From Blasia pusilla (lineage: Eukaryota), in NCBI GenBank assembly GCA_050084515.1, contig CM114271.1:17670001-17734000 (forward strand): 64,000 nt of DNA. The letters run 5' to 3'. Numbering within the stretch: position 1 is the stretch's first letter; the number at the start of each line of letters is the position of its first letter. The translations under genes were made by a program, and so were the position numbers. This document shows positions 5,546 through 56,540 of the stretch, piece by piece. The notes under the pieces are model-generated. The model saw only the letters and a program-made list of their open reading frames with translations, did not search any database and was not told where the DNA came from.

Positions 5546-5653
5546 CATGGTATGGTTTGTAAGAACCATGTGCGTAATTGTGGGTCGTATCACCTTCCGA
5601 ATATAGTCAGTACAATTGATCCAAGCTTAGCAGTAGTTCTTGCAGGCTTGCGA

Positions 5654-16326: not shown

Positions 16327-20542
<4,216 letters not shown>

Positions 20543-31676: not shown

Positions 31677-32123
31677 TGTCGTGCGCCTACTCTCCTTGAA
31701 CGTTAATCTTGTTTGTTGCGGAAGCGTGCGTTCAGTAGGTCACGCTCTCAACGCTGATCTGCCTCCAAACACGCACTTCGGTTAGTCGGGTCTTGGATCA
31801 ATCAGCGGGATTACTTTCCGAGTTCTCGTCTCGGACTCTCTCTTCAAGCTCAACCTTCCTAGTTTCGCGGTTCACGTTCCTGAACCGACCAGAAAGTCTA
31901 TCCCAAGTTTTTCGAGACTTGCCCGTGTTGGAAACCGCGAAACAAGGAAGGTTGAGCTTGAAGAGAGAGTCCGAGATGAGAACTCGGAAAGTAATCCCGC
32001 TGATTGATCCAAGACCCGACTAATCGGCGCGTGTTTGGAGGCAGATCATCGCGTTGAGAGCGTGACTCATCAACGACGCCGCAACAAACAAGATTAACGT
32101 TCAAGGAGAGTAGGCGCACGACA
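31677..32123 (+). repeat. Aberrant 5' LTR: inverted copy of the LTR 3' end (31677-31872) joined to the last ~250 bp of the LTR (31876-32123)
   Basis: 31677-31872 is the reverse complement of ~38325-38520. 31876-32123 matches ~38269-38520 directly. Confidence 0.92.
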
Positions 32124-32125
32124 CG

Positions 32126-32137
32126 TGGTATCAGAGC
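32126..32137 (+). promoter_or_regulatory. Primer binding site, tRNA-iMet
   Basis: TGGTATCAGAGC, 2 nt after the LTR end CA. Confidence 0.95.
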
Positions 32138-32277
32138 TTGTATTCCTTGATGAGCGTGAACTTGGGGTCGTTGAAGATCTAGACGTTTGGGGAGAACTCA
32201 AGGTAGCCGGAAGACCGTGACGCCAAGGAGGAACGCAAGAGGCAAGGAGGAGATCTGAGAAAAGGCGACGACTCGCA

Positions 32278-35200
32278 ATGGCGACCAAGGGCGAAGAACC
32301 GAGGAAACCGCGAGTCAAAGCAAAGAAGCCAAGAGACGAATCAATGACGGACCAAGAGCCGGAGGTGGAATTTGCGACTCCCGAAGTGCCGAGTCCCAAA
32401 CATGAGGATGTTCCAACCGAAAATCTTTCCGCGGGACCTTCGGGTCCTAACTTAAACGATCCGGCCTTTTATACCCAAATGATGGGATTGATGAAGGTGA
32501 TGGCGGACCAGATGGCTGAACAGAGCAAGGTGATCTCGGAATTCAAGTCAAATGGAGCCTCTAGTTCTGGCAAGAAGCTTTGTAAGACTAGTTTGCCAAC
32601 GCCATTCACAGGAATGGGGCGTTCTCGGAAAGTGAGCGAGTTTCTAACGGAACTCAAACTCTATTTCGAAGCGCAAAAGGCAGATGAACAAGACAAGGTG
32701 ACTGTAGCGGTCACATTTCTGAAGGATCACGCTCTCCATTGGTGGACGGCTCACCGCAAAGAACATCTAGGTCGTGGAAAACGTTGAGTTGGGAAGATTT
32801 CAAGGAGTTGATTGGGAACCGATTCACTCCGGAATATCAGGAGTACCGCAATGGCATGGAGGTGGTGAGGTTGCGCCAGAGTGGATCACTTGGCGCTTAT
32901 GTGCGAGAGTTTAGTGCGCTCATGAGTGCACTTTCCACGAATGAACATACTAAAAAGGTGATCTTCCTAAGTGGGCTCAAACCGAGTGCCAAGAAGGCTC
33001 TCTTTCGTATGCCTCACATCCCAGAGACGTGCGCGGACCTCTTGAGACTAGCCGAGCGGATTGGGGACGATGAAGTCCAACACCCGAAACCCTTTGAGAC
33101 AAAAAGTTTTTCTAAGTTACAGAAGAATAAAGGGACATCCAAGAGGGTTTGGAATAGGGGTGAGCGTGACCACGGAGGGTCTCTCGCCCCAACGGCGAAA
33201 CGAGTGGAACTCAACGCGAAGCCGAAGGGGCCGCCGTTTACGAAGTCAACGAATGCCAAAGTGATTTGCTATAATTGTGGCGAACCCGAGCATATGGCTA
33301 AGGAATGTGTGAGGCCCAAGGTGAGTAAACCGAGTATGATTGCGTTTTCCGCTAAGCATTTATCGGAGGGAGATCTAGATACATCTCTACAAGTCACCAA
33401 GAGAACGCCCAATTTGGTTTACCTAGGATCCAAGATCGCTAATCGCGATGTGATGTTGCTCGTTGATACAGGTGCTTCGCACTCATTCTTGAGTCCGAGA
33501 ATCATAAAAACGTTGGGATTGCCAACCACCAAGGCGGATGAACCCATTAGGGTAGGATTCGCGGGAGGCAAGTCCCACCAGACATCAGATCTGGTTTTAG
33601 GGCTAGTTGTGAGATGCGGAGTATTTGAGTTGAAGGAGAATTTTACAGTTTGCGAGATGGACGGTATCGACGGAAGTCTTGGGGAACACGTTCTTGGATG
33701 CGTATGAGGTGGAACTGAGGCGGAGACCTTTGAGGTTAAGCGTCTTGGTTAACGGCAAACGGACGGACGTCAGATTGGTTCGTGAGGTGCCTAGAAAGAC
33801 GGAGTTGGTGAACGCCATCACGAGGACGAGTTTGGCCGAGTTAGAGGAAGGATTTCTTTGCTTGATGAGACGAGTAGAGGATGATGCAAGCGCAAGATGC
33901 AGAGATCATAACTCAGCTTCAAGGGGGATCCCTGAAACACTCAAGAGAGTTGTGAAAGAATTTGAAGATGTGTTGACTAAGGAGCTTCCGACTGAGTTGC
34001 CACCACATAGGGCGGTTGATCATAAGATTGAGGTGATACTAGGATCTCAACCACCTTCAAAGGCACCATATAGGTTGGATCAAGAGGAACTTGCTGAGTT
34101 GAAGAAACAGTTGGGTGAACTCCTAGAGAGGGGTTACATCCAAACAAGCAAGTCACCTTATGGGGCGCCCGTCCTCTTTGTCAAGAAGAAGGATGGGAAG
34201 TTGAGACTCTGTGTTGATTATCGAGCGCTGAATAAAGTGACGGTAAGGAATAACTATCCTCTAATGAGGATGGATGACCTCTTTGATCGATTGTCGGGTG
34301 CCAAGTATTTCAGCCGGATTGACCTGAAATCAGGATATTATCAGATTCGGATTGCCGAAGCGGATGTAGAGAAGACTGCCTGTAGGACGAGATACGGTTC
34401 GTTCGAGTTTGTAGTAATGCCTTTCGGTCTTTGTAATGCGCCTCCGACGTTTACCACTTTGATGAACTCCATCTTTCACAAGGAGACGGATGAGTTTGTG
34501 ATCATCTATATAGATGACATACTCATCTATTCGAAAACACTACAGGAGCATGCTCGACATTTTAAGACGGTGTTTGAGAAACTTAGGGCGAACAAGCTGT
34601 ATGCGAATGCGGATAAGAGTGAGTTCGGTTTGACAAACATCAAGTTCTTGGGGCATGTGGTTAGTGCGGATGGAGTGAGTCCAGAGATGGAAAAGGTCGC
34701 GATTTCGAATGGGAACCGCCTTCCACGGTGAAGGGATGAGAAGGTTCATCGGAGCTATCCAGTTTTACCGGACATACGTGAAGAACTTTTCGGGCATAGT
34801 GAAACCTCTCACGGATTGGACCGCAAAGTTTACCAATACTACATGGACCGAGGAAGTGGATAAAGCGTTCAATCGAGTCAAAGAGATCCTCTCGCAGAAC
34901 CGATTCAAAGCTGCCGGAGTTTGAACAACCGTTCGAGGTGCACACGGATGCTAGTGATTTCGCGATTGCGGCAATGTTGGTGCAAAAGGAGACAGAGTAG
35001 CATACGAAAGCAAGAAGCGACCGACACCAAAAGGAGATGGCCTACTCATGAGAAAGAGTTGTTTGCGGTGGTTCATTGCTTGAGGAAGTGGCGTCACTAT
35101 TTGGGACTTCACAGACTCGAGTATTTATCGATAACATATCGCTCAAGTATTTTGAGACCAGGATCGCGTGGACGCCAAAACAACTTCGGTGGCATGATAC

Positions 35201-36805
35201 CTTGGCGTTGATGAATGTGGAGCTAATCCATAAGCCGGGAAAGACAATGTCATTCCAAATCGTTAAGTCGCAGGATGAACACATGCCATCGCGACACAAG
35301 TGTTGAGAGCAATGTTCCCTAATGAAACAGACCTGGAAAGAAGGATTCGTGAAGGATACATGAAGGATGAGCAAGCGAGGGAGTACCTCGGGAAGTTAAA
35401 GCGGGGCGAGAAGGTGGCCAATCTGAGTTTGAGACACGGCTTGCTAAGGTTTAAGCAGAGTAGGATCTATGTAGGCCAAGGCAAGCTACGGACCAAGGTG
35501 TTTGTGGAATGTCATTATGGACCTTTGGCAGGACACAAAGGGGAGAAATCCACTCTTCTTTGTTTTGTCTAAGAGGTTCTTCCGGCCCAACATGAAGGAA
35601 GATGTTGCTCAATATGTGAAAACATGCGTGACCGCCAAAGCGAACCGCGTGTCTTATGCCAAGAAACAAGGTTTACTTCATCCTTTGCCAATCCCGAAGG
35701 GACCCTTGCAAAGCATTAGCATGGATTTCATTACGAGTCTTCCAGAATCTGAGGAATACAACGCTATACTTGTGATAGTTGATCGGTTTAGCAAGTTGGG
35801 GAGGTTTGTGCCGACGAGAGAGTCTGCGACGGCCTACACGACTTCCCGACTATTCCTGGATGGTTGGTGGTGTGCGCACGGATTTCCTAGGAGCATTGTG
35901 TCCGATCGGGATCCGAAGTTTACCAGTGCCTTTTGGAAACATCTATTCAGGAGGTTCCGGACCAAACTCAGCTTTAGTACGGCCTTCCATCCTCAAACGG
36001 ATGGGCAAACGGAAAAAGTAAACTCAGTCGTAAACCAATACTTACGGAATTACGTGAGTGCGGACCAAAGAGATTGGGCCAAGTGGTTAAGTATGGCTGA
36101 GTATTGTAACAACTCGACTAAGCATTCTGCAACCGGAGAATCTCCGTTTCTTCTGGCGTATCAAAGAGAACCAGAAGGGCCTCTTGACTTAGCTCTTTCG
36201 AAGGGCAATACATCGACACACACTCGTCAAGCAACGGCGGAATGTTTGTTAGTGGAAATGCAGGAACAACAAGAGCGAGCGAGAGAAAGTCTTGCCGAGG
36301 CTCAACTAAGGTACGTAAAGCATGCTAACAAAAGTCGGCGCCAAGTGAGTTTCCAAGTTGGGGAACAAGTGTGGTTGAGTGTTAAGAATCTCACTCTTCC
36401 GAAGGAATTGTCCGCGAAATTGTCAGCTAAGTATGTTGGACCGTATGTGATCAAGGCAAATCCGTTTGAGGATGTGTACACGTTGGAGCTGCCAAACGAG
36501 TTCAAGATTCACCCGACTTTCCATGTGTCATTATTGAAGAAGTATCTTCAAGACAATGTGCGTCCGGAACGAAGGAGGATGTTGAGACCACAACCGGTCA
36601 TCAGAAATGAGGAACCGAGTTCGAGGTTGAGACCATTCTGCGTTCCAGACGTAGGGCCACCAAGTACGAGTACATGATCAAGTGGAAAGGCTATCATGTG
36701 AAAGAGGCGACTTGGATTGCGGAGGCGGATCTAGAACATGCGCAAGAAGCATTGCGTGACTTCAGATGGATGCAAAAAAAAGGCACGTGCGTTAGTACAT
36801 GGTGA
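32278..36805 (+). pseudogene. Gag-Pol of the chromovirus: gag, zinc knuckle, protease, RT, RNase H, integrase, chromodomain; frameshifted
   Basis: CYNCGEPEHMAKEC; LVDTGASHSF; RLCVDYRALN...YIDDILIYS; SISMDFITSLP...SDRDPKFTS...QTDGQTE; GPY. Chromodomain EFEVETIL...EYMIKWKGY...ATWIAEADL at ~36617-36765. Confidence 0.93.
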
Positions 36806-37476
36806 AGCAATGGACATAACTTGTGACCGGAAAGCTTGGGCCGATAACCCGTTGTAACTAGAAAGGTTTAGTTGTTGCAATAAAGAAGACATGGATTTGG
36901 AGATTCGATGCTTGTATTATAATTTTGAGTTTGGTTGTGCAAGGCAATGAGTAGTTCTTCATATGCTTAGGATTTAAGTCAAGGAGACCAAACAATGAGT
37001 ATTTGAGGTGAGAGCTTGTATTCAGATAAGGCTTCTAGATCAGGACCAAGTGTTGAAGTACTAGCATTTGGGCTCGCCCTAACGTCGGCGGGGCAGATGA
37101 GTCTGTCTTGGGGTTTGTGGTGATCTTATTCATGTTTCATGACTGAACTTAGTGACGCGCCTAGGTGGAATACAAGTGACCCAAAAGTAGTACGAGTTGG
37201 CTAGGTAGACAGGCGGTTGTTTACAAATAGTGAGTGAAGTGTTAGGTTGCAGACTTAGTGAGCTTATTTTGATAGTTAGATTAGTTCGGAAGAACAAGTC
37301 TAGGCTCATCAGAAAGCAGAAGCTAATAAGTCTAAGTGCTGCAAGCGACAAACCTAACACTTAAGCCAAAAAGAGGAATTGCGGGTTAGCTACCAAAACG
37401 CGATTCTGTGTTAAGGAGTCGGCTTCCCAGAACTTAACATCAATAAGGTTTGCGTTGATGAGGACATCAACCTTCT

Positions 37477-37489
37477 AAGGAGGGGTGAG
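37477..37489 (+). promoter_or_regulatory. Polypurine tract of the chromovirus
   Basis: aaggaggggtgag directly before the TG of the 3' LTR, preceded by a gttgatg-agga-catcaac hairpin. Confidence 0.85.
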
Positions 37490-38520
37490 TGTCGTGACCC
37501 TCATAACCAAACAACACCAAATACGCGCCAAGCGAAACATCAGAGTCAAAGGAACTCACGCCGCGAGGTTTGCGCTTTGGAGAGGCGTTTGGAAGAGTCT
37601 CTTGGAAAAGTCTAAGAGACGAAACGCGGAACAGAGTTGTGCGTTTCATGCGTGAGTGGTCGCAACCAGGAAACCTAGACCAAACGCGAGCCGAGGCTTG
37701 AGATGAGTTGAGTCTTGGAGGTTGGTTGCCAAAGAGGTGAGAACCAGTTTGGAACACGACTAGCGTTTGGGAGAATCTGACTGTGTTTAGGACCATAACG
37801 TTGAGCTACGAGATGCGTTCGGGACAAGTAAGAGCGCGTTGGAAAGCTGATCTCAAGACGCTTCCAACGCATCAAAGATCTCAGAAAACGCATAAGTACA
37901 GGCTGAGATATTGGCCGAAAACGATTCAAAGAGCAATCGGGTTGAGGGCCAATTGGAGAGGCCCGGGTGTCTTTCCCTAAATGTAGGGGGCCCCCGGAGA
38001 TCCCCAGAAGTACTAGTAAGGGGAGTACCTTCTCTGAGATGTCTCGGGAAACGAAACCCCATTTTGGGCGCCAAACGGGGTTTTAGAGGCACGAGATGAA
38101 ACGGGAGTTTGGCGCGGAAACCCGAAACCCAAACCTGATCCAAGGGAGTGGACTTTGTACGCCACACTTGGATTCCAACCCGAGATTCACTTCGTGCGAG
38201 TCTTGGTGAGGAACTCATTGGATGTTCATCGACGATTGGAACCGCTTAGGCGCTAAACGCCGCTTTCAGTTCCTGAACCCGACGAAAGTCTGTCCCAAGT
38301 CTTTCGAGACTTGCCGGTGTTGGAAACCGCGAAACTAGGAAGGTTGAGCTTGAAGAGAGAGTCCGAGACGAGAACTCGGAAAGTAATCCCGCTGATTGAT
38401 CCAAGACCCGACTAACCGAAGTGCGTGTTTGGAGGCAGATCAGCGTTGAGAGCACCACCTACCGAACGCACGCTTCTGCAACAAACAAGATTAACGTTCA
38501 AGGAGAGTAGGCGCACGACA
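37490..38520 (+). repeat. 3' LTR of the chromovirus (1031 bp)
   Basis: TGTCGTG...CACGACA terminal inverted ends; follows the PPT and is followed by the TSD. Confidence 0.92.
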
Positions 38521-40472
38521 CTTTCATAAGTCCTCTAAAATTGCGTGCCCTTGATCCAAATTTAGCACAAGATATAAAAGGACTTACATTTATATATGTT
38601 CAATTCGTAGAAGACACGTGATTTATACATACAGATGTTGCCATTGTGGTATAGTCACCAATAGTTTATCAAAGGTAATGGAGCCGAGATCCTTTTTTTG
38701 GTCTGAAAATAGAGTGTAAATATAACTCAATTTATTACAACCATGACACTTGGTATCCCAACCTTATTAGTCATACTTAACAAGATTCAATTGTCAAGCC
38801 TCATTGTGTGTGATTGGCCTGGGTGATCTATAATTGGATCTACCAATAGTCTATAAAGATGCCCCACTCATGCATTAGCCCCCCTTCAAACCTCATGCGG
38901 CATGAAGTTTATCCATAGGGACATGGATGATCCAACATCCTCACACTCTCCTCCAAAAATTGGCACACAATCAAGATGGGGTCCAAGGCTATCAATGAAA
39001 CACTCTCCATAACCTTAAACTCCTTAGATTTTCTCGGCCTTTTTCAAAGACCTCACTCCAAGTCATCTAAGCATGCTCTCTGACACTGTATCAAAACTCC
39101 TTTAGCAAACCCCATAGTGGTACTACAATGTCTTCTATTCTGATAAAATCAGTGTTTTGGACGTTTAAGGTATGATTAGTTCCCCAAGAGGATCATCTTG
39201 TTCTCTCAAAACATAAATATGTCAATCTAATGCTTGCAAGCTGACTGAAGTTATTTCAACACTCTATAACTCACATTTTCATTCCTCTATTCTTCTCTTA
39301 GTAGGACATATAATTTCCTTGTGAAGTGTCTTCTTAGTGAAATTCGGAGTTGGTTCTCTCGAATCTAAGCATGACTTATCCAAAAGAGCCTCAAAGAGAA
39401 CACAACGTTTACATGGCTCTTCCTAGAGTCAAAATTCAATCCGTCATGGCACGTCACATATTCTCTATCTACCCAATTTATTAACTCGTATTCACAGTGC
39501 ACTCTTTCTTTATCAAAAATCATACTAACAAATTCTTTCCATATAGTAGACCGAATCAGATAGAGACTACCACCATCTTCGTACAACAGGAAATAATGGA
39601 ATGCTTACTATTTCATTCCAACAACATCTACACGCTTACCCAAATGGTGGTTCTTTCTCCTTAGAGTCTTCTTTAAATCCTACTTTTAGAAGGATCCTAT
39701 CTTGAGATATAGATCAATTTTTTGGACCAAGATGTCTCTTAAGATATTGCTAACTGTTTGATGAAGGGTTAATATTGCTTTCCTGGTGATCCCGCTGAAT
39801 CAGTTGATCCTACGGCCGCGTTCTTTCTAAGCATCGTGCCCCTATTTTTCTTCTTGCCCAACTGTTGTGTCATTCCCATACCAACTCCAGTCTTTGGACT
39901 CCTATAGTCTTCGTTCCGAATAAGTTTAAGTCTTGGCTACAAAGACAAACTATCTTCGCAAAGACTATTTATTTCTCCTTACTTGGTCTTTGTTGAAGAG
40001 TCTTTGTTCCGAAGACAAAATATCTTAGTTTTCACTTATTGTCTTTAAAAATATTCTTCTTTGTCTATCCAAACTTACTCCAAATCCATTTTCGCTTTCC
40101 TCAAAGAAAATTCCTTGTTCTCAACAACTTGTTCGTCTTCTCATTGGAATTCAAATCAATTCATTGTTCCAATAGTCAAATATTTCTCGAATTTTTTTAC
40201 ATTCCCAAACAATGCCTCTTCCTTGCTCTGTCTTCGTACATACAAAACCCTTATTTTACTTAAAAGTCTTACATTTTACAAAATTTTAAGAGATAATAGG
40301 TATCACAGGTACCTCCCCTCCATCGGCTAGTGAGGCCATCATCACACTCCACTTCATAAAAGTCTCACCCTCTAGTATATCCTCTACATGAACATGACCT
40401 TCCATCTGGAAAAGTGATTGTGTTGTTCATACTAGAGTCCACCCCTTACCAACATAAAAAGGCGGTTGCATG

Positions 40473-42024
40473 CTAACGTGGCACCATCTCCTCATCAACC
40501 TCGCCATGCCATCTAGCCCGAGTTGCATCCTCTTGGCTAGTACATGGGTTCCTACTCAACCCATCAGCATCAAGGTTGGCAACTCCAGGTCTATGTACCG
40601 CTTGGAAATCATAATCCTGTAAGATAAGAGCCCACCGTGCAAGCTTCCCTATAAGCTTGTCAGACTCCATCAACCACTTGAGCGGTTGGTGATCAATAAC
40701 AAAGATAAATTGTGTGCCAAACAAGTAACACCTAAAGTGTGCCACAGCCCACACTATTGCCAAGCACTCTCCCTTATATGAACTATAGCGCGACTCCGGT
40801 GCATTATTTGAACGACTTGCATAGGCCACCACAAACTCCATGTACTCATCATCATGTTGTGTCAACACCGCTCCAAGTCCCAACCTACTCCAATCAATGT
40901 GTAACTGAAATGGGCGCCCTCTAATAGGTCTCCTCAAGATAGGCGCCGACACCAGCTGGGCCTTAAGCTCCACAAAAGCTCTCTCCTGATCATCTCCCCA
41001 GTGCCACTCTTGATCTGATTTCAGCAATTGGTTCAAAGTCTTTGCCAGAGCACTAAATCCCTTCAGATACCTCCGACAGTAGTTCGCCAATCCCATGAAT
41101 GCCCGAACTCTACTCACATCTATCGGACACGGAATAAGTGCAATATCCTCCACCTTTGTTTGCTGAACTCTCAAACCACCTAGATAGATCACATGACCCA
41201 AATACTCAACATCCTCATGGAAGAACTTACACTTTCCTGGATGCAAACGTAGACCATGAGCTTTCAACCGCTCAAACACCATCTGCAAATGTATCTGATG
41301 CTCCTCCACCGTGTTACTCAACACCAAGATATCATCAATGTAACACCGAACAAAACCCAACCCTGCTAGGATCCTGTCCATCACTCTCTGAAACTCGGCA
41401 GGTGCATTCTTCAACCCAAAGGGTAAGAATTTCCACTGGTACAAACAATCCTTGCCATGAGAGTTGACACCCCAAAATGCTTTATTGGCCTTGTCACTCT
41501 CACGAATCGGCAATTGATGGTATCCTGCATGAAGATCCAAAGTAGTGAAAATCTTTTCTTGTCCCACCACATCAAAGATCTCCTCAGGTGGAGGCATGGC
41601 ATACCTATCGGCCTTGGTTTGCCGATTGATAGGACGGTAATCTCCACACATCCGCCTATCCTGTATAGTTGCCATGCATATCCTTTTTAGCAGGCATGAC
41701 AATGGCTGATGCATACTCTCCATGTGACAACTCCACTAATTCAGCCTCCAAAAGGTCCAACGTCCTCCTCTGAATCAAGTCCCTCTCCATATCACTATAT
41801 CGGTAGGGACGACGGAAGATTGGCGTATCACTAGCCAAATCAATATGTATACCAGGTCCAACCAGAGCACCCAACTCCTTCATGCTAAAGGCAAAACAAC
41901 TCCTATAAGCACGTAGGAACTGTGTCAAGCATCGTTTCTCACCTCCCATAAGCTTGGACCTAAGTAATGGCTCCCAAGTCTCCTCCACTAGCACACTAGA
42001 GGGAGAGGACGATGCCATTGGCTG
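40473..42024 (-). pseudogene. Reverse transcriptase + RNase H of DNMT-gypsy copy 3 (one frameshift near 41660)
   Basis: ORFs 41656-42018 and 40473-41723 carry intact RT motifs LDLHAGYHQ, PFGLKNAPAEFQR and CYIDDILV. Confidence 0.93.
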
Positions 42025-42274
42025 CTATGCAACCCCCTCACAAGATGGTATACCCTTAGCTACACCATCATCTGAGCAAATAACTTTTCCACTCGCATGA
42101 GCAACCAACTCCACATGCCCAGCCATTACATCCTATTTACTCCAAGGATGCAAAATACTACTCTCCTCGCCCCTAGCCGATGCCTCTACCGTCTCGGTAG
42201 CCATCGAGCTCATTACAAGGGGTGGAAGACCCACAGACATAGTCCAAATTCGACGCTGCTCGGCCATACCAAGA

Positions 42275-43198
42275 ATCAAAATCCAAGTCAAACAATTCAG
42301 GTTCATGGCCGAACCCAACACATGACGTCATGAAGCCTCAGAAATGGAAGCAACCGCTGTCATACCAGTAGCAAATCCCATCGCACGCTCTCTCTCATCA
42401 GCGTTAGGCTCCACCAATTGTCGCACATGAGAATCCCATACAAGTCCGGGACCACCTTCCATGTAGGCATGTGACGAGGGAAAACTCAAAATGTGGGTAG
42501 TGCCATCCTTGGCTGGCCCACACGGTTCACCACTGCCATGGATGACCGATCAATAACCCTCACCACCAGAGAAAGTCGCCCAGTATCCAAGATACTATCC
42601 ACTGTAAGGCAAGGATTCCGCTGCATTGCATCATATGCTCGACGTAGAACCTCCCTAGGCAACAAGTTTGTCCACCACAAGCGTGGACGATGTGCACGCA
42701 AGCCAACTCGCGCTGCATCCAACAACACCGCTGGTCCAATCCAAGACCACACCTCATGAACACTTGCCATCATCCAGGTCCGAGTGTCACCCAAGAATGG
42801 AACATTCTCTAGAATGTAAGCTGGAGCACGTGCCTGATGAAGTTGAAGATGTCGTAACACCAGTAACATCTCCCAAAAAAATCAAGACCTAGGATCGTGT
42901 AATCTCTCACCACGATCTGCACGTGTATGACCCTGACATGGCCATCCAACAATCACCAAATCCACAGGACGAACCCTCAACAATGCAATGTGTGACGACA
43001 AAGCATGCTGGTACCCACGAATAGCTAATCGCGGCAATTGTCAAGATATCTCCGCATCAACAAATGAATATGTCGGGATGAGACTCTCTGGGCCATCTCA
43101 TCTTGCTCCACATACACGTATCTCCGCACAGGAATACCGGTCTGCAACATTGCAGCCAAACCAGTGCTAATCCCACCAAAGAGATCTAACACACAAAT
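42275..43198 (-). pseudogene. DNMT3-like cytosine-5 methyltransferase domain of retroelement copy 3
   Basis: ICVLDLFGGISTGLAAMLQTGIPVRRYVYVE; DLVIVGWPCQG (42947-42930); AYILENVP; RAHRPRLWWTNL; ERERAMGFATGMT; HVLGSAMNLNCLTWIL. Confidence 0.92.
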
Positions 43199-44388
43199 GC
43201 CCTCAAGAGGATACTGCCATACAATGGGTGTAGTATCCAAAGGGGATAACCCAACTCGACTAGAGGTAGGACTCCGCCGTGGGGCCTCCTCTTCCTCGTG
43301 AGGTATAATAGCCTCACACCAAGCCTCCTGCACTAGGCGATCAGCCTTCTGCCATAGTGCAGCGCCTTAACTCCAAAGTGGCACATCCGACAATGAGGAT
43401 GCCACTGCTGCAAAACTAGGGACCTCCTCTACCTCCTCATTGATAGGAGAATCCATAGCATAAACATTATCCTCCAAAAAGTCTCTTGGCCAAGTGACTA
43501 CTCCACTAAAACCAGCCACAGATGCTAACACTGTTGGGGAAGACCCTCCTGGTCGAGCCCCATTAATAAATCTCATAGGAACTTGGCTCATATGTCCATC
43601 CCCGGACTACCAACCAGGTCTATAAGACGCTGTCTCAGTCCAGTAATCCATCTGAAAACCCATCGAGTACAATACTGCTCCTCCAACTAGTACATCATAC
43701 GACTCGGCTAATCTAACTACTGCAGGTACTCCCAACCGGGAGCTATCAATCGCATGATCGGATCTCAATTGTATAGAAAACTTCTCCCGTGTCATGAATT
43801 GAGACCTATCATTGGCTTCTCCAAGTGAGGTTTGAATCTAGAATGGGCAAGGCTCAAGCTTTGACCTCCGAATACCCAAACCAATACATGCCGCCTTTCC
43901 TGGGCACCAAAGTCTAACAAGACTCTATCTGGTCTATACACTTGTCCTATAGGACTCACCAATCGGAATATCCCACTCCGATTGTCCAACATACATATAC
44001 TAGGTGTAAGCCTCTCACAATCAATGGCTAGCCGGGCTGGTAATGCATCCATCTTCACCGATGCTGCTTACCAAGTAGCAATGGTACTAAATGCTACACC
44101 TGACATAGAGGGCCGCTCCACTGCAACACCCTCATCCACCTCAGCACGTGTAGCAGTAATACCCCCACCTTCAGACAACGTGACTGCTAGCTGAAATACA
44201 GGAGCTAAGTCAACTCCTAAAGCCATAAGTTCCATGGCCGAAAACAATGGGTATCCCAACACCGAAGTTGCCATCTGCAATAGTGCATGGGATGGTGCAT
44301 CCGTGTCTACTACACGCGATGTAGATGCCTCAATCCCCACTATCGGCTCAATAGGCTGCGTAGGAACCATGGATGGAGTCCTAAGCAC

Positions 44389-44668
44389 CTCAGACAACAA
44401 GAATGACTGGGGAAGCCTAGTCTGCCTCCCAGCCCCATCCCTCTGTGGGTCCAACTCCAAAGTATCACCACGTGGCTCTGACGCTCGAGTGGCTCCTCTC
44501 GTAACTGTTGCTGATGCCTCAACATGTGCTCAGACAACAAGAATGACTCGGGAAGCCTAGCCTGCCTCCCAGCCTCACCCCTCTGTGGGTACAACTCCAA
44601 AGTAGCACCACGTGGCTCTGGCGCTCGAGTGGCTCCTCTCGTGACTACTACTGATGCCTCGACCTGTG
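44389..44668. repeat. 140-bp imperfect tandem duplication in the gag-protease linker of copy 3
   Basis: ctcagacaacaagaatgact...gatgcctc(a/g)ac(a/c)tgtg begins at both 44389 and 44529. Confidence 0.9.
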
Positions 44669-44696
44669 ATGCACTCGCCATATAAGAGAGATCATC

Positions 44697-46212
44697 CTAT
44701 CCATAAGAGGCGGAAGCCCCTGCTCCCGAACCTGATCTATGTTGGATACCAGCCATAGTAGCCAACTTTTGCTCCAACTGCTCAATCCTGGAAACCATAG
44801 CTGACTCTGTTGTAGTGGTAGGGGTGGCCACCGTAGGCTCTCCAACCACTGGTCTACCTCTACCACCCCAACCACCTCTATCACCTCGGCCTCTCCGAGC
44901 TACTCCACCACGGCCGTGGCTTGATCTCAACTCTGGATGGAGATCAAAGCAACGCTCTCGAGGATGACCTGGTCTCCCGTAATGATCACACTAAGTTGGG
45001 GCCGATTGAGGCCCATCCTCCAAAGTCCATCTCCCATACTCTTGGGGACAAAAATTCCTAACATGATCACCTCCACATGTCCAACATGACTGTCCTTGCT
45101 GCGGGGAAGCAAATGAAGGCAATGGTCTCTGCGCAAGTGTCCCTCTAGGACCTGACTGAGGTCGTGTGTACCCCCCACTACTCCCACTACTACTACCACC
45201 ACCACTACTACTGGCGTGAGGTGGGCTGCTGAACATGAGAAGTAGTAGTTGTATCCCTACTGAATGCGGATGTCACCACTCTCTCCTTCACCATGTTAAG
45301 CTCAATCTTCTCAGATAGAGCAAACACATGGGTCAATGTGGGTGAATCATCACTCGTAAGAGTAACATCACATACCCTTCGGCGCAACTCTCTATCCAAG
45401 ATCCCATACTAAAACAGGACTGCCTAAGCCTTAGTCACACCCTGGGTAACAGAAATCAAGCGTCCCATACAAGTGTATGCCTCACAAAGACTCTCACCAG
45501 TCTTTCGATCAAATTCCTGAAGACTCCTCAACTTCTCTATCTTCACTCCCTGATAGTTCTTCTTCAACCTCTTGAAGAACTCTGCAACCGGGCTAAACGA
45601 TGGTGGGGCACTAGTACCTCCACAAGTACCCCCATTGGTACCTCCATGGGTACCTCCACTGGTACCCCCACTCCGGCTCATACTCGTACCACTCAACGTC
45701 GGGCTGGCTGGCATAGTAGGAGCACTACTACCAATACCACCATGGGTGATAGACACATAGCCAGGAGACCAATATTGTCTCCACACCTCAATCTCACCAA
45801 CATGGTCCTTCCTAAACTCATGGTAATCATCCATGGGTGGTCCCTCCAAGTGCTAAAACAACCCCTTCGAAGCCAAGAAGGGTGTAAACAACGTGGCCTT
45901 CCACAACATTTGCATATCACACCACGTATCAAACTCATGCATGAAGTCCTCCAACTCAATGGTGCCCACTGCACCCAAGTATTGTTGTGGGTCCTTCATG
46001 GCCCCAGATATTCCGTCCATGTCCCAAATCAATGGAGTTGCAACACTCGATAACAACGTAGAAGACTCGGTGTTTGGAACACCCTCGTCCTCCTCTTCAT
46101 CAACCCTCGGAAGTGGAAAAGGTAGCCGATACGTCAATCCACTCCGTGTAAAACCACCACTGTCCGCACCACGGTCCCCAACCACACCAACAAACAGCTC
46201 CGTGATGACCAA
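44697..46212 (-). pseudogene. Gag with zinc knuckles (DNMT-gypsy copy 3)
   Basis: IELEDFMHEFDTWCD...LEGPPMDDYHEF...EKLRSLQEFDRKTGESL; CWTCGGDHVRNFC. Confidence 0.8.
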
Positions 46213-46892
46213 CGCCGATGCCGCACCACCACCAAATTACCACCACTAAGTAACCAAGTGACGTAAATGTCGCTGTACTATTCTAGCTCTACTAGCTATG
46301 GGTGTAGGCAACCTAATATTTCATCACCACAAGAATCCTCCCACGGTCTACTGGTCATCGCTCCAGCCTCACTACGGGTAGCACACATGAGTAACACTAC
46401 TCTGGAAATCAGCGTCAACCCTAACAATGGGCGCGCAAGCAAGAAGCAACGATGGAGGGGATCCAAACACATGACGTCCAACGACAACCCTCCAGTCGCA
46501 AATGGAAATCAAGGTAACAAAATCCACCAAACGTGGCACCCCCTGAATCCGGAGAACCCACCACACAATTCTAACGCAATAGCTACTCCGCCGTGGGTCG
46601 ATGACGTGCTAGTCGGACTCACATCACATGAAAATATCACTTGCATGGAGAGGCTACATCGTACTTTGCGCTAGAGGTCCATCAACCAAATACCTGAGAT
46701 GCATAAAGCGCATGATACCTCTCCGAACAGCAATAAATGAGCTACATCAGTGTCTACACTGGCATAATTAAGAACTCAACAGTTAAGCGTCTTCCTGGAA
46801 GAATAGCCCAAAGATGGGTGACCCGTTATGCAACACTCAAATCACAAATCTTGCAAAAATTGCCTCACACCCAAGCAAGCAAGTTTGCTTAT

Positions 46893-46920
46893 TTGCTCCT
46901 TGCTCCTTGCTCCTTGCTCC
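46893..46920 (+). repeat. (TTGCTCC)4 tandem repeat in the leader of copy 3
   Basis: Read directly. Confidence 0.85.
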
Positions 46921-49218
46921 TAACTCCGCCTCTCACGCCCACTCGCCGAGACATGCCTCTATCGCCCCATTCGCCACGCTTCGCCATGCTTCGCTATGGA
47001 GAGAGGCCCAACCAAGGCGGTTTCAACAGGATAGGCGTCTCCAACAATAAATGAGTCACCAACCAACTAGCCCCTCCGATCCGCTATCCACCATAGCCAG
47101 ACCTTGAGGTAGTCCGCAAAATTTTGATCAGCAATTACTCCACAAATCCTCAACACGAATTAAATTGACCACCATAGCTATCTCTCAACAAAAAAATCAG
47201 GTACAACCGAGCTTTGTGCTCCGAGCTAAAAATCAAACAAACTTGTTGTCCATACACCTCCAGAATTCCAAATGCACGCAGAAATCCGCAACGCTCCATA
47301 CACTCTAGCTGAAAGCTTCACATGAGATCACAATACAAGTAGCAATAGGAACCTCTCACCCGATCTGGATGAACTTCAACAGAGCTTCCGCACTCCAAGC
47401 TCTCCACATCAGAAAACCGTCGAACACGAACCAGAATCTTCAATCCTTGATAACTTCCAACTCCCTTGATGAAATCCGGCGATCTAAAGCACGTTGGAAA
47501 GCTCTTAGCAAGGTGCTTCTTTTCCATTCAACTATGCACCATATTCTTACCTCCAACATAGGCCACAAGCCATGATCATCCACGGTTGAGTACACAATCA
47601 GCCCTAACCAAATCCTACTGATCCACAATCGAAGCTCCCATCGATCTACGTGAATTCTTTGAGTGAAATCCGTGAAAGACCTACTTTCATAAAACACGTA
47701 TAGAATCACATACAATCGAGCCAAACCCACTCCACGATGGGAGAATCTAGGTCGAAGCTTGCGGGAAACACCATAGCCAAGAGCTCTACTCACTACGAAG
47801 GCTAACTCCCAACGCAACACGCTCAACTCAAAGAACTGACTATTCTTTGATGCACTCCACACTATATCCTCCAACCTAAGAGCGGGCCCTAGTGGGAAAG
47901 TTACCCCCAACTGAGAAACCCCCAACCCTATATATGAAACCGCATCTCTACCTAGCCATTACCGTATGGCCTCTACTAGCACACTATACTCTACGACAAA
48001 ATCCGTATGGTCATGACACCAATTTGAGAGAATATGATTCTTCTTTCACTCGATTATACATCTAGTCAAGGTGTTGCATATTGAAGTGTGTGAGAGAGTG
48101 AGAGAGGAAGAGTGAGTGGATTGGAATTGAAAAGGATAAATCCTAGATTGAATCATTTTCATGATAAATCAGGCTTTCAAAAGCTAAGAGTGATCCTTTT
48201 TGGAGAATGAATTCCATATTTAACCATTCAAAAAGTGAAATTAGTAGTCCTAAAGACGTTACAAAGCACAATATGATGCCCCACTTATAGAGTTTTGAAG
48301 GTGATAGAGTCGTAACTCACTTATTGTATATTCTGAAGTTTGAGGTATTGGTATCTACCTTATCCATCTTCTTCGCTCACAAGGTTTCTTTGTTGTGATG
48401 TTCAACTAAAAATTGGTTAAATAAATCTATTTACTATTTAACAATTTTCTCAATTTGTGTTGTGGTCCTACTACTTCACAACGTATATCTTCAAGAAAAT
48501 ATACAAATTAGAGCGTATTCTATCAAGTATATGTAAACAAAATCTAATTTTATGTGAATATGATCTCACAAGTAATGTTTTACTTCCAAATTATAAAACC
48601 TTTTAAGACTATTACAAAAAAAGGGCTTGAGATTATGTGTTTTCTTATCATAATTAAAAATATTTTCTAGTGGTTAATGCAAATACAATAATATAGTAAA
48701 TACAATTTATAATAAATCTAGAAGCACATGAAATAGTTTCCAATATTCATCTGAATCACTTGTCTTCTCAACGTACAATTCTATCCAAAGTGTGAATCGA
48801 CAAAACATGTCCTAAATCCTTTTATAACTAATGTGGAATAAGATATGCTTATTATTTTTGATAGATTTATTCTATAATCTTGAAAATAAGTTTTAGATTA
48901 ACAACATAATTTATAAATATAAAAAACCTAAAATGAGATATATTCTATCTAAACATCTAATGAATATATCATGGATGGATATAGCAGCGAAAGATATTAT
49001 TTTCATATGAGTGGATGCAAGCATATCACAAGTGTGCTATACTAACTCCAAACTATATGGATATCATCTCACTAACCACGTGTAAATTGTTTGTTTATAA
49101 GTCCTACTTAGGGATGCATTTACGACAACATGTAATTTTGTATTTGGAATATTATTTCAGTTATAGATTCATCTTGCTTTCACACTTGTATTGTTATACA
49201 TAAGTTCTCTATAGATGG

Positions 49219-49621
49219 ATTTTCAACATCCACTTCTCTGAACACCATTAATCTGATCGACCCCTTGTATGAGGAGAACCCTAGATCGATGGTTTCCACT
49301 TAGACGTCGGAGGAGTCATAGTAATATGACCTATGTGGTTTTAGGAGTAGCGTTACTATGATTATCTAATCATATATAGATAATATAGTGTTAGGGTGCA
49401 AATTTTCCCATTAATAGAAACGAAGAAAAATAGATAAAAAACCATAGTTTGGTGAGAAGTGAAATAGTTAGGCCCCTGCGGTAGCGCGTTCTCGTATGTC
49501 GAGTTATCCCTATGCTCGAGTTCCATCGAAGCTCTTCTATGAGCGCACAGACGGACTATGCCACTTTGTATCTTTAATTTTTGTAATGATTTCAGTGATT
49601 TCGCCACTTTCTGTTTTCTCA
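49219..49621 (+). repeat. Copia 5' LTR (start uncertain by a few bp)
   Basis: aacatccactt...ttttctca, repeated at 57348-57770. Confidence 0.85.
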
Positions 49622-52600
49622 TATGGTATGAAAGTTGTTGGTTTTCTAGTATTTTGTATCTGGTGATCTAGCGTGTTTGCACAAAATCTTGAGGGATGGC
49701 TACTTCTTTGTCAGTCCGTGCTTGCCCTCATCCGTTGGATGAAGGGAAGTTATATGGATCTAAGTATACATTTTGGAAGTTCAAAATGAGAGGTATCCTC
49801 GAATCATTTGAGATATAGGAGACGCCGAAATGGGTCGATTCGAATCCACAAGCTACTTTGAGTTCTGCATGTTCATCTCATCTGGTGATATCAATCCTGT
49901 TGTATTGTTGGCATGGAAACGCAAAAATGCTGATGCTCTATATGCAATTGTCACGAATGTAACTGATTTTGTCATGACTCTTATTCAACATACGACCACC
50001 GCTAATGAGGCGTGGAATATTCTAAATAATCACTGTGAAACCAAGAATGAGACTCAATTTCATAATATGAAGAATTTGCTTACTCTAGGAAATTTTCATA
50101 AGGAGAAAGCCCGAAGCAGTTTTTTACAAGGATCAAGAACCTTCAAGATCATATTGCGTCCGTAGGAATTTCAAAGTCTAGGGAAGATTTGGCGTGTCGG
50201 TGCATAAGGATTTTGCCTCCAAGGTATGATAGTTTGGTCACTGCATTTAATACTCAAGTAAAACTTACGCCGCTTACTTTTGAACAATTTAGTGCAATAT
50301 TGGTAGAAGAGGAAATCTGCTTCAAAGCAAGAGAGAGAAGTGATGCAGCATTTACTACCAACGTACAAAGAGGTAGAAATCAAGATTACAGTTCCAATAT
50401 CAAGAAGAAATTTCCAAGGAAAGCCTTCAAATTCTTTTATTGTCATAAGCTAGGTTATCTTAAAAGAGATTGTAGAAAGAGGAGTCAGGATGAGAAAAAC
50501 GATGGTTTAAGACCTAAGAGGGAGTCTGGAAATTTTGTAGAACTAGGAGAACATGAAGTAATTGCTTGGGTGGAAATCGAAGAGTTTAGGGTTCATTCCA
50601 CTAAGTCAAAAGGTGAAGATGCATGGGTGCTCAATAGTGGATCATCTAGCCATATAACCAATCATAAGGATTGATATACCTCCTTACATCCTCTACGGGA
50701 GCCCATCGTTGTTATTGTTGGGAATAATTCAAAGTGCCCTTTATAAGGGAATGGCATAATTTCTTTAGTCTCACAAAAATGAGATGAAAAGAAGTTAACT
50801 GATATATTGTACGTACAAAAGTTAAAGCGGAATTTGATTATAGTAGTAGTATTATGTGATTGTGAACTAGAAGTTTGTTTCAAGAAAATAAGAGCAGTCA
50901 TTGAGGATACCAATGGGAAAGTAGTGGGTGAAGATATACGACGTGGAAATATCTAAATTTTGTATGCTTTCACAACAAGTGTAGGTACGGATCTTAGTAG
51001 CAGTAAGTTGAGGCATGAAAGATTTGATCACCTAAGCTTTCCCTTATTAAGTCAAATGCAAAAATTTGACATGGTTGTTGATTTACCAACAATTTTTGGA
51101 GTGTCGGATACATGTAAAGCTTGTATGAAGGGCAACCAACACCGTCAACCATTTCAACAAGAGTCCAGCAATGGGGCAAAGGTTCCTCTAGAGCTGATTC
51201 ATGCTCACCTTTGTGGTAAAATTAGAACAATCGCACTAGGTGGTTCTTCATACTCTTTTTAGTTGTTGACGATTATAGTATGAAGATATGGATGTATTTC
51301 CTTCGTGATAAGGGAAGTAGTTTTGAAAAATTTAAAGTATGCCAGAAGAAGGTTCAGAATGAGACAGGAAAGAAGGTACAGAAGCTTCGCACCGATCAAG
51401 GAGGAGAATTCTCATCAAGAGAATTCAACAAATATTTGGGGGAGCATGGAATCAAGCGAGAGTTAACCATGATACATACAAAATGGAGTTATTCAGCGTC
51501 AAAACCGTACAATGGTGGAGATGGCAAGATGTATGATGAAAGCAAAATATTTGACAAAGGATTTTGGGCTGAAGTTGTTAATACTCCCGTTTACATTCTA
51601 AATAGAAGTGCTACCAAGTTAGTGCAAGGCATGACTCCTCATCAATCATATTCATGTAAGGTACTATAAGTCCAACATTTCATGACTTTTGGTAGTGAGT
51701 GCTTTGTACATATTCCTTAAGCATCCAAGACCAAGCCCAAGTCCAAGAGTAGGAAATGCATCTTTATAGGATATAGTGATGAGTCTAAAGCTTATCGCCT
51801 ATGGTCTCTTGAGGCAAAGAAGATGCTTGTGAGTCGTGATGTAGTGATCAAGGAACAACCTCATCAAGTGGCGGATATCAATGGTCCGTCCACATTATTA
51901 TCAAACGAATAGATAACCCACCGGAGCACACCACCAATATTTACACCAAGAAGAAGAATTTGGTGGTGATTACAAATAGCAGCTTGCTCTTTCACTACGG
52001 TCATCATACCCTAAGTGGATACATCACCTCTTGGATGATAAGGATCCACAAGCAACTCATGAAGTTGTTACATATGCAAGGAGATCCAAGAGACTAGAGG
52101 AGTAGAATAGTGCTTCCACACATCTCATCAACATGGCCTTCATAAGAGACGTGTTGAAGGTCGAAGAGCCATCATGCTTGGATGAGACCCTTGCTCGTCC
52201 TCAATGGAGAGAGGCCATGTAGATGGAGATGGACGATATTAAGAGAAATGAAACTTGAATTTTGGTTGAGAAGAAAAATCTTAGGAAGATAATACGCACA
52301 AAGTCGGTGTACAAGACCAATTACAAGTCGGATGCTACATTGGATAAATTCAAAGCGAGGTTGGTTGCACAAGGATGTTCACAAATCAAAGTTTTTTACT
52401 ACTATGAGACTTTTGCTCCTACTGCAAGGACGACAACGATTCAAATTGTTCTAGCGGTGGCAGAAACAAGACGTTGGCTTGTATACCAATACAATGTGAA
52501 GTCTGCCTTTCTGAATTGGAGTCTCAAGGAGGAGGTGTATGTATCTCAACCACCAAGTTTTGAGATGATTAGATTAGAAGAGAAAGTATGCCTACTTCAT

Positions 52601-55600: not shown

Positions 55601-56540
55601 CCTGGTGGGACCTCAACCACTCCCATGCCTCATGAGGCGGCGATGATACGGGAAGCACCGGAGAGCATCCATGGTCGACAGGAGGGACCACCCATCCAAA
55701 TCTATCAAAGTCAAGATGTTTAGCCGCTAAGTGGTTCCGAATTCCTGAACGAGTGAAGAATTCGGGACAACATGGGCATTTAGTATCCCGACAAGACGAC
55801 CCACGGGTCCCCACATAGGGAGCCGATGCGGGTTGAGGCATGGATGCAACTCACCAAGAAGGGGACATGGCCCCCTCCAATAGAATCGTGCCACAATCCC
55901 CCGCCAATAACAATCCTATCATCCCCATTCGAATGAGCGGTCTTGAAAACAACTCTCTTCCCGTCCACGGTAATGCTCCCTCTAACATAAACTCTCACCT
56001 ACCGACATCACCTAGGACTTCTAGTCCCAACCCCCTCCCAAAAATGAACTCATGAATACGTAGATTTGCTAAGGGTGTGAAAAGATCATGGGCCCTTCGA
56101 GATAAAATAGATGAGAAGAAAAGTGTATGTACGGGAGGGGTAACAAATACAAACGTGAATCGAACCAAAATGAGAAGCACATACGACCAATACGACAAAC
56201 AAGAAAGGACTTGGGAAAGGAGGGGAAGGGTGGGTGAATAGAGGACGTTACTTCGGGAAATTTCTCCAAATGACAATAAGCAAAGCCCTAATACTCATAT
56301 TTGGAACCCTAATATGAACCGAATTCTAAAAAGATAAATAAAAATAAAAATACTTCATGCCATGCAGCAAGGTCCGGATCAAAACAAAACCCTCGTCAGG
56401 CTCTCTGTTTCAACATGTAGCACGTCCCTTTTCATCCCCGACGCCCATGGTTCTTCCTCCCGCCGTCCCCGTCCATGCCTCCTACCGTCCCCGCCCAAAA
56501 TCGCGTCCACTCGCGTCGCGTCATCTCTCTCTCTCTCTCC
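52601..56540 (-). mobile_element. Non-LTR retrotransposon with restriction-like endonuclease (CRE-clade-like), inserted antisense in the copia RT
   Basis: Copia RT breaks at KVCLLH (52600) and resumes at K..GLKQAPRVW (~56541). The insert encodes an N-terminal C2H2 finger CPCCPEFFTRSGIRNHLAAKH, RT motifs (VENAFN, RRGDPL, decayed ADD, GLAVKVGKC), a CKC..HLARC...HNAVRD knuckle and an RADL...DVVVTDP...KK..Y...FIPLAIE endonuclease. Confidence 0.85.
52909..55841 (-). pseudogene. Single ORF (zinc finger-RT-zinc knuckle-RLE) of the CRE-like element, disrupted
   Basis: ORF pieces 55347-55841, 55008-55325, 54715-55059, 54358-54791 and 52909-54294 (461 aa). Confidence 0.8.

Follow-up and report, generated by a model that had tools for sequence, protein, structure and literature searches.

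Introduction

Among described systems, the one closest to the element analysed here is KnitGypsy-Dnmt3, in which a non-rearranged Dnmt3 domain lies within the gypsy Pol of Klebsormidium nitens, with a Ka/Ks below 0.2 and with repeats like those of a DIRS retrotransposon (PMC5890265). That 2018 paper holds that the K. nitens lineage acquired the domain, and it spells the repeats of the dinoflagellate elements as A-coding region-B-A-B. We analysed 64,000 nucleotides of DNA from Blasia pusilla (assembly GCA_050084515.1, contig CM114271.1, positions 17,670,001 to 17,734,000; "the window" denotes this whole stretch throughout), in which three insertions, here called copies 1, 2 and 3, carry a cytosine methyltransferase domain inside a retrotransposon polyprotein. 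In our reading, to which we give a probability of about 0.72 on the basis of sequence comparison, they are three decayed insertions of one old Ty3/gypsy family that forms a bryophyte-type branch of the KnitGypsy-Dnmt3 lineage. The family encodes a single Gag-Pol polyprotein in the order gag (CCHC), aspartic protease, DNMT3-type methyltransferase, reverse transcriptase (RT), RNase H and DDE integrase.

The likeness to KnitGypsy-Dnmt3 covers the gypsy Pol with a non-rearranged DNMT3-type domain, the purifying selection and the A-coding-B-A-B layout (PMC5890265). We infer that the K. nitens protein GAQ93235.1 belongs to the published family; its domains stand in the order seen in the window copies, and it falls in the same methyltransferase clade (100/99). 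The differences lie in host and age: the hosts here are of the land-plant type, the nearest named relatives coming from Sphagnum, Marchantia and Calypogeia, and where the paper describes a K. nitens-specific capture, our tree suggests a far older, streptophyte-wide family. SymbioDIRS-Dnmt3 of Symbiodinium also has a DNMT3-type domain in Pol and A-coding-B-A-B repeats, and its own enzyme is reported to methylate CG de novo in yeast (PMC5890265). SymbioDIRS-Dnmt3 is a DIRS element with a tyrosine recombinase, whereas the present family is marked by a DDE integrase (rve), by TG...CA ends and by target duplications of 4 bp. A looser analogy is found in the chromoviruses, gypsy elements with an integrase chromodomain, which have likewise taken up a host chromatin module; theirs is a reader module that sits at the C-terminus of the integrase, whereas the module here is an enzyme placed between protease and RT.

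By sequence, then, the window would hold not a new capture but members of a lineage already published from Klebsormidium. An earlier note on this DNA knew of no description of such an element in a land-plant genome, and none turned up in a full-text literature search, with the proviso that trees of interest may be found in the supplements of PMC5890265 and PMC12344493. PMC12344493 has one sentence repeating the 2018 finding for 'streptophytes and dinoflagellates', and the identifiers of the Marchantia gene models did not occur in the full-text search. What appears to be new is the occurrence of members in land plants and in Closterium, the evidence that the lineage is single and ancient, and a second architecture found in green algae.

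Structure of copy 3

Copy 3 is a 3'-truncated Ty3/gypsy element on the minus strand, 48018-40428. Stop-to-stop open reading frames (ORFs) and a three-frame translation give, from high to low coordinates, a long terminal repeat (LTR), gag, protease, C5-cytosine methyltransferase, linker and RT-RNase H. The bounds first proposed, 40473-46212, were too narrow: the 5' LTR and leader lie upstream of them, and the copy lacks an integrase and the B-A-B repeats of the 3' end. Its parts are as follows.

47660-48018, minus strand: 5' terminal repeat A (LTR), 70-74% identical to the A repeats of the related loci L037, L056, L063 and L071
47413-47659, minus strand: leader or 5' untranslated region, of which 47522-47413 is 71% identical to the leader of L037
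44635-46236, minus strand: gag, in several frames, with 73% nucleotide identity to the gag of L037
44389-44668, no strand assigned: tandem duplication private to copy 3, between gag and protease, 2 x 140 bp, 91% identical (repeat family D6)
43560-44067, minus strand, bounds approximate: aspartic protease, aligned to relatives with DTGA or DSGA
42250-43366, minus strand: DNMT3-type C5-cytosine methyltransferase, motifs I-X, in three frames with internal stops
41656-42249, minus strand: linker between methyltransferase and RT, 56-57% amino acid identity to copies 1 and 2
40473-41735, minus strand: RT and RNase H in a single open frame of 420 codons (RVT_1 8.6e-31, RT_RNaseH 1.6e-32)
40428-40472, minus strand: truncation point, likeness to all full-length relatives stopping at 40428

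The 5' end at 48018 starts with TGTCATGACCATA, which is the conserved 5' terminus of the family as read by eye, and sequencing reads part from the window sequence at the same position. Two CCHC-like zinc knuckles are encoded in the gag ORFs 44991-45272 and 44697-44990, and the gag pieces share 32-48% amino acid identity with those of copy 2. The protease fragment has no Pfam match; its LDFGA, taken for the protease motif in the earlier note, is indeed a mutated D[S/T]GA catalytic motif, since the corresponding column reads DTGA or DSGA in intact relatives, and the YDVLVGG part lies in a different frame. No open frame covers the methyltransferase, which runs through 43366-43025, 43028-42489 and 42486-42250 with two frame changes and is interrupted by TGA stops, one at 42884 and further within the C-terminal piece. 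Its middle piece is 75-79% identical at the amino acid level to the metagenome relatives P0001 and P0003, and the RT-RNase H is 82% identical to the Marchantia polymorpha protein P0048 over 342 columns.

Matches to RVT_1, RT_RNaseH and RT_RNaseH_2 in copy 3, together with an integrase region in copy 1, place the family in the Ty3/gypsy class, and the intact relative P0076 has the full Ty3/gypsy set of Pol domains. Assignment to the DIRS elements was considered and ruled out by the presence of rve and Integrase_H2C2 in the scanned polyproteins, which have no phage-integrase domain.

Identity of the methyltransferase domain

In the common numbering of C5-methyltransferase motifs from I to X, the three-frame translation of 42000-43500 (minus strand) reads DLFGGISTG, GWPCQG, ENV, AHRPRLWW, ERERAMGF and LGSAMNL for motifs I, IV, VI, VIII, IX and X. 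The motifs of copy 3 are thus colinear from I to X, in the canonical order that had been claimed for them. All are present in copy 3, and some are lost in copies 1 and 2. A search with PF00145 (cut-off 22 bits), suggested as a check in the earlier note, gave E 5.1e-5 and 23.3 bits for the middle piece of copy 3 and E 8e-5 and 22.7 bits for copy 2, scores that count somewhat against the assignment in that they barely exceed the cut-off and cover the motif IV-VI region only. The N- and C-terminal pieces of the copy 3 domain, searched alone, have no Pfam match, and intact relatives reach 35-58 bits.

Family profiles and fold comparison give stronger support for the methyltransferase identity than Pfam does. 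A profile built from 12 relatives found DNMT3A as its best match in the PDB (8.8e-13), followed by tobacco DRM (9.3e-8) and HhaI (about 7e-3), and its alignment to DNMT3A is colinear through motifs I-VIII and once more through IX-X. The profile of 46 relatives matched DNMT3A at 7e-27, DNMT3C at 2e-24 and DNMT3B at 4.5e-24, ahead of tobacco DRM (2.8e-14), Arabidopsis DRM2 (1.4e-10), M.HhaI (5e-9) and DNMT2 (6e-6); no DNMT1 or CMT (chromomethylase) chain was found at E <= 0.01. The DRM chains align over the first part of the profile only (25-152 of 343; 88-227 of 500), with lower scores.

An AlphaFold2 model of the intact relative P0001, whose identity to the copy 3 middle piece is about 75%, reached a pLDDT of 92.3 with the 46-row alignment; a model from a shallow 12-row alignment (pLDDT 40.9) was discarded. 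With the P0001 model of pLDDT 92.3 Foldseek returned DNMT3A, 3B or 3C as every match listed (to rank 47), the best at E 3e-20. That model superposes on DNMT3A with a TM of 0.82, and the target-normalised TM is 0.80-0.85 among the matches listed. Pfam detected neither PWWP nor ADD regulatory domains in any polyprotein scanned. Because of these profile and Foldseek matches and the lack of PWWP and ADD, METHYLTRANSFERASE comes out as a DNMT3-type catalytic domain on its own, without the rearrangement seen in DRM, in agreement with the DNMT3-like, non-permuted type proposed earlier. A circular permutation of the DRM type, with motifs VI-X before I-V, was ruled out by the I-to-X order and by the colinear alignment to DNMT3A. 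The element domain has its catalytic fold and motifs in common with host DNMT3A/B/C and plant DRM at only 20-23% identity; it differs from host DNMT3 in lacking PWWP and ADD and in sitting in a retrotransposon polyprotein, and from DRM in the absence of permutation.

Position of the domain in the window and in relatives

Copies 1 and 2 lie on the plus strand, at 1672-6097 and about 25067-30011.

25067-26413, plus strand: copy 2 gag, found by tblastn with the copy 3 gag pieces, with a zinc-knuckle remnant at 26210-26317
27019-27480, plus strand: copy 2 protease, motif mutated to LDSRA, YDLLVGE kept
27787-28919, plus strand: copy 2 methyltransferase, GWPCQG kept, ENV changed to ENE
29216-30011, plus strand: copy 2 start of RT, deletion and integrase remnant, likeness ending at 30011
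1672-2589, plus strand: copy 1 methyltransferase, 5'-truncated inside the N-terminus and heavily decayed
2896-4416, plus strand: copy 1 linker, RT and RNase H, 63% amino acid identity to copy 3 over 424 residues, 72% at the nucleotide level
4855-5562, plus strand: copy 1 integrase core region, aligning to the integrase of full-length loci and to copy 2
5547-6097, plus strand: copy 1 3' non-coding region with one short B repeat (6024-6097), matching the 3' end of L037

The methyltransferase of copy 2 keeps one frame over 28113-28919 with two TAG stops, and an internal deletion of about 1.85 kb, visible as a shift of the offset to copy 1 from 26320 to 24470, has removed its RT-RNase H. In copy 1 stops fall within the catalytic PC motif and ENV has become EKV. 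Since copies 1 and 2 are 75-86% identical in DNA and copy 3 is 66-72% identical to them, the window holds at least two old subfamilies, one of copy 3 and one of copies 1 and 2. A Cys/His-rich stretch 3' of the copy 1 integrase core, at 5501-5722 (plus strand), recalls a zinc finger and has no Pfam match.

In all three window copies the methyltransferase stands between protease and RT, and the fixed position that the earlier note had read from them recurs widely. Of 281 candidates from metagenome contigs, 96 were confirmed by a scan and 80 loci retained; a protease precedes the domain in 62 of the 66 loci with room upstream, and an RT follows in 40 of the 54 with room downstream. Copy 3 is about 77% identical over 4.1 kb to many of these loci. 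The same position is found in proteins from five named streptophyte genera, Marchantia, Calypogeia, Sphagnum, Closterium and Klebsormidium. A search with the copy 2 domain returned 42 proteins of similar length and 21 longer ones, the named sources being Marchantia polymorpha (13 of the 21 longer matches), M. paleacea, Calypogeia fissa, Sphagnum troendelagicum and S. fallax. In one Marchantia gene model RT and RNase H come after the methyltransferase, one Sphagnum gene model joins it to an rve integrase, and in one metagenome protein it follows a protease. K. nitens GAQ93235.1 reads CCHC-protease-DNMT, and several Closterium proteins comprise CCHC, protease, DNMT and RT. Two metagenome ORFs, one of 2188 and one of 2138 codons, are intact and encode gag, DNMT, RT, RNase H and integrase in this order, with a Pfam protease match in the former and none in the latter. 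The earlier statement that the domain is a fixed part of a family and not a one-off capture is thus borne out as to position, with the amendment that the lineage itself was already known from Klebsormidium. Some of the Marchantia copies (P0046-P0056) are labelled 'DNA (cytosine-5-)-methyltransferase' in their sources, and bryophyte genome annotations list pieces of the polyprotein under that name or as 'hypothetical protein'.

Transposon pieces, from other gypsy elements and from copia and PIF elements, lie nested in the window, a setting in which a host DNMT3 gene might have been interrupted by, or come to lie beside, unrelated retrotransposon pieces, or in which an assembly chimera might arise. 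We regard such an artefact as having next to no chance of being the explanation: the junctions on both sides are the same in three diverged copies, the counts of 62/66 and 40/54 come from independent loci, and single uninterrupted ORFs span the domains. The host-gene/transposon chimera was rejected on these grounds.

A profile search of 1.84 billion representatives found 3895 clusters at E <= 1e-3 and 365 at E <= 1e-30. The architectures of 228 proteins comprised protease-DNMT-RT or part of it in 31, RT-RNase H-DNMT-integrase in 82 and the domain alone in 112; the other three were one with integrase only, one with RT-RNase H only and one without a match.

The order RT-RNase H-DNMT3-integrase constitutes a second architecture, observed in P0099, P0137, P0161, P0168, P0228 and about 80 more proteins. 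It is common among intact metagenome ORFs, with lengths of 2000-3456 codons, and occurs in Scenedesmus 'pol' proteins as well. Elements of the type of Scenedesmus 'pol' KAF8056149.1 have a DNMT3-type domain and an RT related to that of copy 3 (40-45% identity); they differ in that the methyltransferase comes after RNase H and not before RT, that a PHD finger follows the integrase (in three of the four second-architecture proteins scanned) and that they form a separate clade (100/99). No printed description of this architecture turned up, though no search aimed at such elements was made.

Terminal repeats of full-length relatives

No repeat pair surrounds any of the three copies in a within-window LTR search, and the terminal 19-mers of related loci were not found in the window at up to three mismatches. 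What is left there of the terminal repeats is the 5' A of copy 3 and a single B of copy 1, so that the layout was learned from related loci. Full-length relatives of copy 3 show an A-coding-B-A-B layout with a total length of 9.1-9.3 kb. The A repeat, 320-345 bp long, stands at both ends of these loci with 88-94% identity, and a 115-bp B repeat flanks the 3' A on both sides in L037, L056 and L071. The B repeat of copy 1 matches both B copies of L037 and L056, and the A-B that should come after it is absent. The related loci begin with TGTCATGA and end with GCACGACA (TG...CA). Target duplications of 4 bp are exact in L071 (CATA) and L063 (AAGG) and have one mismatch in L037 (AACA/AATA). To judge from these sequences, the TG...CA ends and the 4-bp duplications are marks of a DDE integrase, unlike the ends of true DIRS elements.

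In L037 (14615-15170), and also in L056 and L071, the junction of the first B with the 3' A resembles a 3' end joined to a 5' end, as in a circle junction, which is odd for an element with a DDE integrase.

Phylogeny and history of the family

The domain tree comprised 66 rows, five duplicate rows and one gappy row of a first tree having been dropped. It splits the protease-DNMT-RT group from the RT-RNase H-DNMT-integrase group at 100/99. Within the former, Klebsormidium branches first together with one metagenome protein, the remaining rows being joined at 96/89. Next come a clade with Closterium (98/90) and a bryophyte clade (100/89); all named bryophyte sequences and both window copies in the tree belong to the 23-row crown of the latter (100/100). 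The succession of Klebsormidiophyceae, Zygnematophyceae and land plants is the accepted branching order of streptophytes. Because the deep order of the tree (Klebsormidium, Closterium, bryophytes) mirrors that of the hosts, it favours one old capture followed by descent, and we consider it probable, on this sequence evidence, that the domain was captured once before land plants and was later inherited mostly vertically. The tree is one of element domains and has no host DNMT3 or DRM sequences, which weakens the case for a single capture.

If instead a bryophyte gypsy element had taken up a host DNMT3 independently of the Klebsormidium element, the likeness between the two would be convergence. 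PMC5890265 takes its data to mean that the domain was acquired in the K. nitens lineage and shows such captures to be recurrent, and the second architecture of Scenedesmus and the metagenome ORFs implies that the domain was placed at least twice or moved. The gag-protease-DNMT order is, however, identical in the K. nitens, Closterium and bryophyte proteins, their methyltransferases form one clade (100/99) that branches in host order, and the rare A-coding-B-A-B layout, as far as it is described for the published elements, is common to them. A separate capture therefore seems improbable to us.

Within the bryophyte crown the host order is not followed, Sphagnum being nearer to Marchantia than Calypogeia is, and this tells against simple descent; old subfamilies or some transfer between hosts must therefore be allowed. 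Horizontal spread, by which a single lineage would have reached mosses, liverworts and algae through transfer and not descent, would account for this departure, for the 82% identity of the copy 3 RT-RNase H to a Marchantia polymorpha copy and for a distance of only about 0.3 substitutions per site between Sphagnum and Marchantia domains. It is opposed by the deep order, which follows the hosts with support from 96/89 to 100/89, and by the finding that every named genus forms its own clade, while old co-existing subfamilies, such as those in the window, account for the shallow conflicts. We consider spread by transfer unlikely, though a better candidate than separate capture, and retain one old capture with mostly vertical inheritance as the preferred history.

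A tree of RT-RNase H, with the two unrelated gypsy fragments of the window as outgroups, reached a support of 70 and did not resolve whether both DNMT architectures group apart from DNMT-less gypsy elements. Most Marchantia polymorpha copies (P0046-P0056) in the domain tree sit on end branches of 0.003-0.06, and these short branches suggest a recent amplification.

Selection on the methyltransferase

Between copy 3 and copies 1 and 2, the proportions of nonsynonymous and synonymous differences (pN and pS) in the methyltransferase are 0.26 and 0.71-0.73, with an omega of 0.13-0.15 (259 and 363 codons), as against a pN of 0.20, a pS of 0.70 and an omega of 0.11 in RT-RNase H; synonymous sites are saturated at this distance, which counts against the omega values as anything but rough ones, though the contrast of pN with pS is clear. 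For copy 2 against copy 1, omega is 0.30 in the methyltransferase, 0.29-0.31 in two of three integrase pieces and 0.78 in the third, 0.56-0.58 in the linkers, and 0.50 and 1.94 in out-of-frame controls. Neither the catalytic Cys of the PC motif nor the ENV Glu varies among 46 aligned relatives, which share identities down to 32%. These results, with pN far below pS between subfamilies, come out on the side of the earlier suggestion that selection, and not passive carriage, has acted on the domain, for which dN/dS had been named as the check.

Passive cargo, that is, a methyltransferase carried as a dead passenger without a role in the life cycle, would fit two observations: every copy seen as DNA is broken, and among 15 young dead metagenome copies the median omega of the methyltransferase is 0.57 (105 pairs), a value that does not speak for strong selection. 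In the same copies omega is 0.52 in the integrase (103 pairs) and 0.33 in RT-RNase H (105 pairs). The young-copy values are inflated by neutral decay after insertion, and they lend selection weak support. Set against passive cargo are the pN of about one third of pS between subfamilies, like that of RT, the invariant catalytic residues in 46 diverse relatives, a position that is constant from Klebsormidium to mosses, and the existence of intact ORFs of 2138-2188 codons. A dead passenger is accordingly very improbable; as far as sequence comparison can tell, the methyltransferase is kept at one position under purifying selection in Klebsormidium, Closterium, liverworts and mosses.

Copy abundance and transcription

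Reads from the public runs of one organism were aligned to 40000-48200 of the window. In a sequencing-run index search, the best-matching DNA run shares 0.38 of the words, and no RNA run was listed. DNA contigs of this organism yielded 78,928 matching pieces, 30,040 of them at >=99% identity and 48,888 at 95-99%, which indicates many near-identical copies in its DNA. From three RNA runs came 859, 730 and 975 reads. Almost all of them matched at 95-99% identity (7, 4 and 6 at >=99%), and they covered the LTR, gag, the methyltransferase (at a depth of about 4-40) and RT. The strand bias of the RNA is strong, for example 66.9 versus 4.2 at 41096-41369, and the biased strand is the sense strand of the element if the usual stranded protocol was used. 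The RNA reads have fixed differences from copy 3, extend past 40428 as loose ends and depart from its sequence at the 5' end, and thus stem from sister copies.

Other elements and genes in the window

Two gypsy pieces without a methyltransferase domain, whose RT is only 33-38% identical to that of copy 3, lie in the window. One, at 1-1690, holds the RT and RNase H of a third gypsy family and adjoins the truncated start of copy 1. The other, at 31892-38418, has matching ends of 135 bp that are 96% identical (31892-32026 and 38284-38418), an RT at about 34204-35336 and an integrase at 35475-36677 with rve and a Tf2-1-type SH3 domain. Repeats of 85 bp at 49540 and 57689, 88% identical, enclose weak copia-type matches over 49540-57773 (gag at 50102-50674 and RVT_2 at 56348-56818), possibly a decayed copia element; a 482-codon ORF at 52909-54357 (minus strand) has no Pfam match. 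A PIF/Harbinger-type transposase ORF lies at 10837-11427 on the minus strand (Plant_tran 1.4e-63, DDE_Tnp_4). On the same strand, 18315-19562 is an uninterrupted 415-codon frame whose product, a DEAH2/PRP2-like splicing helicase, shares about 92% identity with seed-plant proteins and 90-91% with Closterium and is too conserved to indicate the host. The named sequences nearest to the element are those of bryophytes, and the window very likely comes from a land plant, probably a bryophyte.

Discussion

Our comparisons assign the three insertions to one old Ty3/gypsy family of the KnitGypsy-Dnmt3 lineage, in which the methyltransferase has a constant place in Gag-Pol. Several observations weigh against taking this picture too far. 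All three window copies are broken and hence dead, and all 80 metagenome loci are decayed as well, with a longest ORF of 545 codons. The long Marchantia gene models may skip stops through predicted introns. Finally, no read or contig covers the flank at 40000-40273, and the transcribing organism may not be the window's own.

A wider reading would see a streptophyte-wide family that arose by one capture before land plants, was inherited through Klebsormidiophyceae, Zygnematophyceae and bryophytes, is still transcribed and perhaps transposing, Marchantia polymorpha included, and carries an unguided DNMT3 that methylates insertions in advance. Taken as a whole, we hold this only tentatively and at somewhat less than even chances.

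As to function, the enzyme would be packaged in the particle as part of Gag-Pol and would methylate the element's own new double-stranded cDNA before or at integration. New insertions would then arrive already marked, and host maintenance enzymes could keep the mark. PMC5890265 proposes methylation of cDNA at reverse transcription, with self-marking, protection against deamination and self-restraint as possible benefits. For the present family, the sequence makes cDNA methylation a possible role, one that we favour tentatively at somewhat below even odds. Another target, namely host chromatin near the insertion or genome-wide, or the RNA of the element, is plausible to a lesser degree: without PWWP and ADD the enzyme would be unguided, and the discussion in PMC5890265 lists these options and mentions a LINE-borne enzyme that did not methylate DNA in yeast. 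The domain nevertheless has the fold and motifs of DNMT3 enzymes that act on DNA, the DNMT3-type enzyme of the DIRS element methylates CG in DNA according to the same source, and a location inside Pol puts the enzyme in the particle together with the cDNA.

The finding bears on a paradox. Cytosine methylation is the host's main weapon against transposons, and here a transposon carries a de novo methylation enzyme of its own. One old capture kept for hundreds of millions of years, as favoured by our data, argues that the enzyme serves the element. The 2018 report reportedly rests on a dinoflagellate and one charophyte, neither of which is easy to manipulate; the many very similar copies of Marchantia polymorpha and the sense-biased transcripts move the question to systems with methylomes, mutants and transformation. 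Pieces of the element that are annotated as methyltransferases could also inflate the counts of host DNMT3 genes in bryophyte genomes. If the streptophyte-wide reading is true, a transposon-encoded layer would be added to de novo methylation in these plants.

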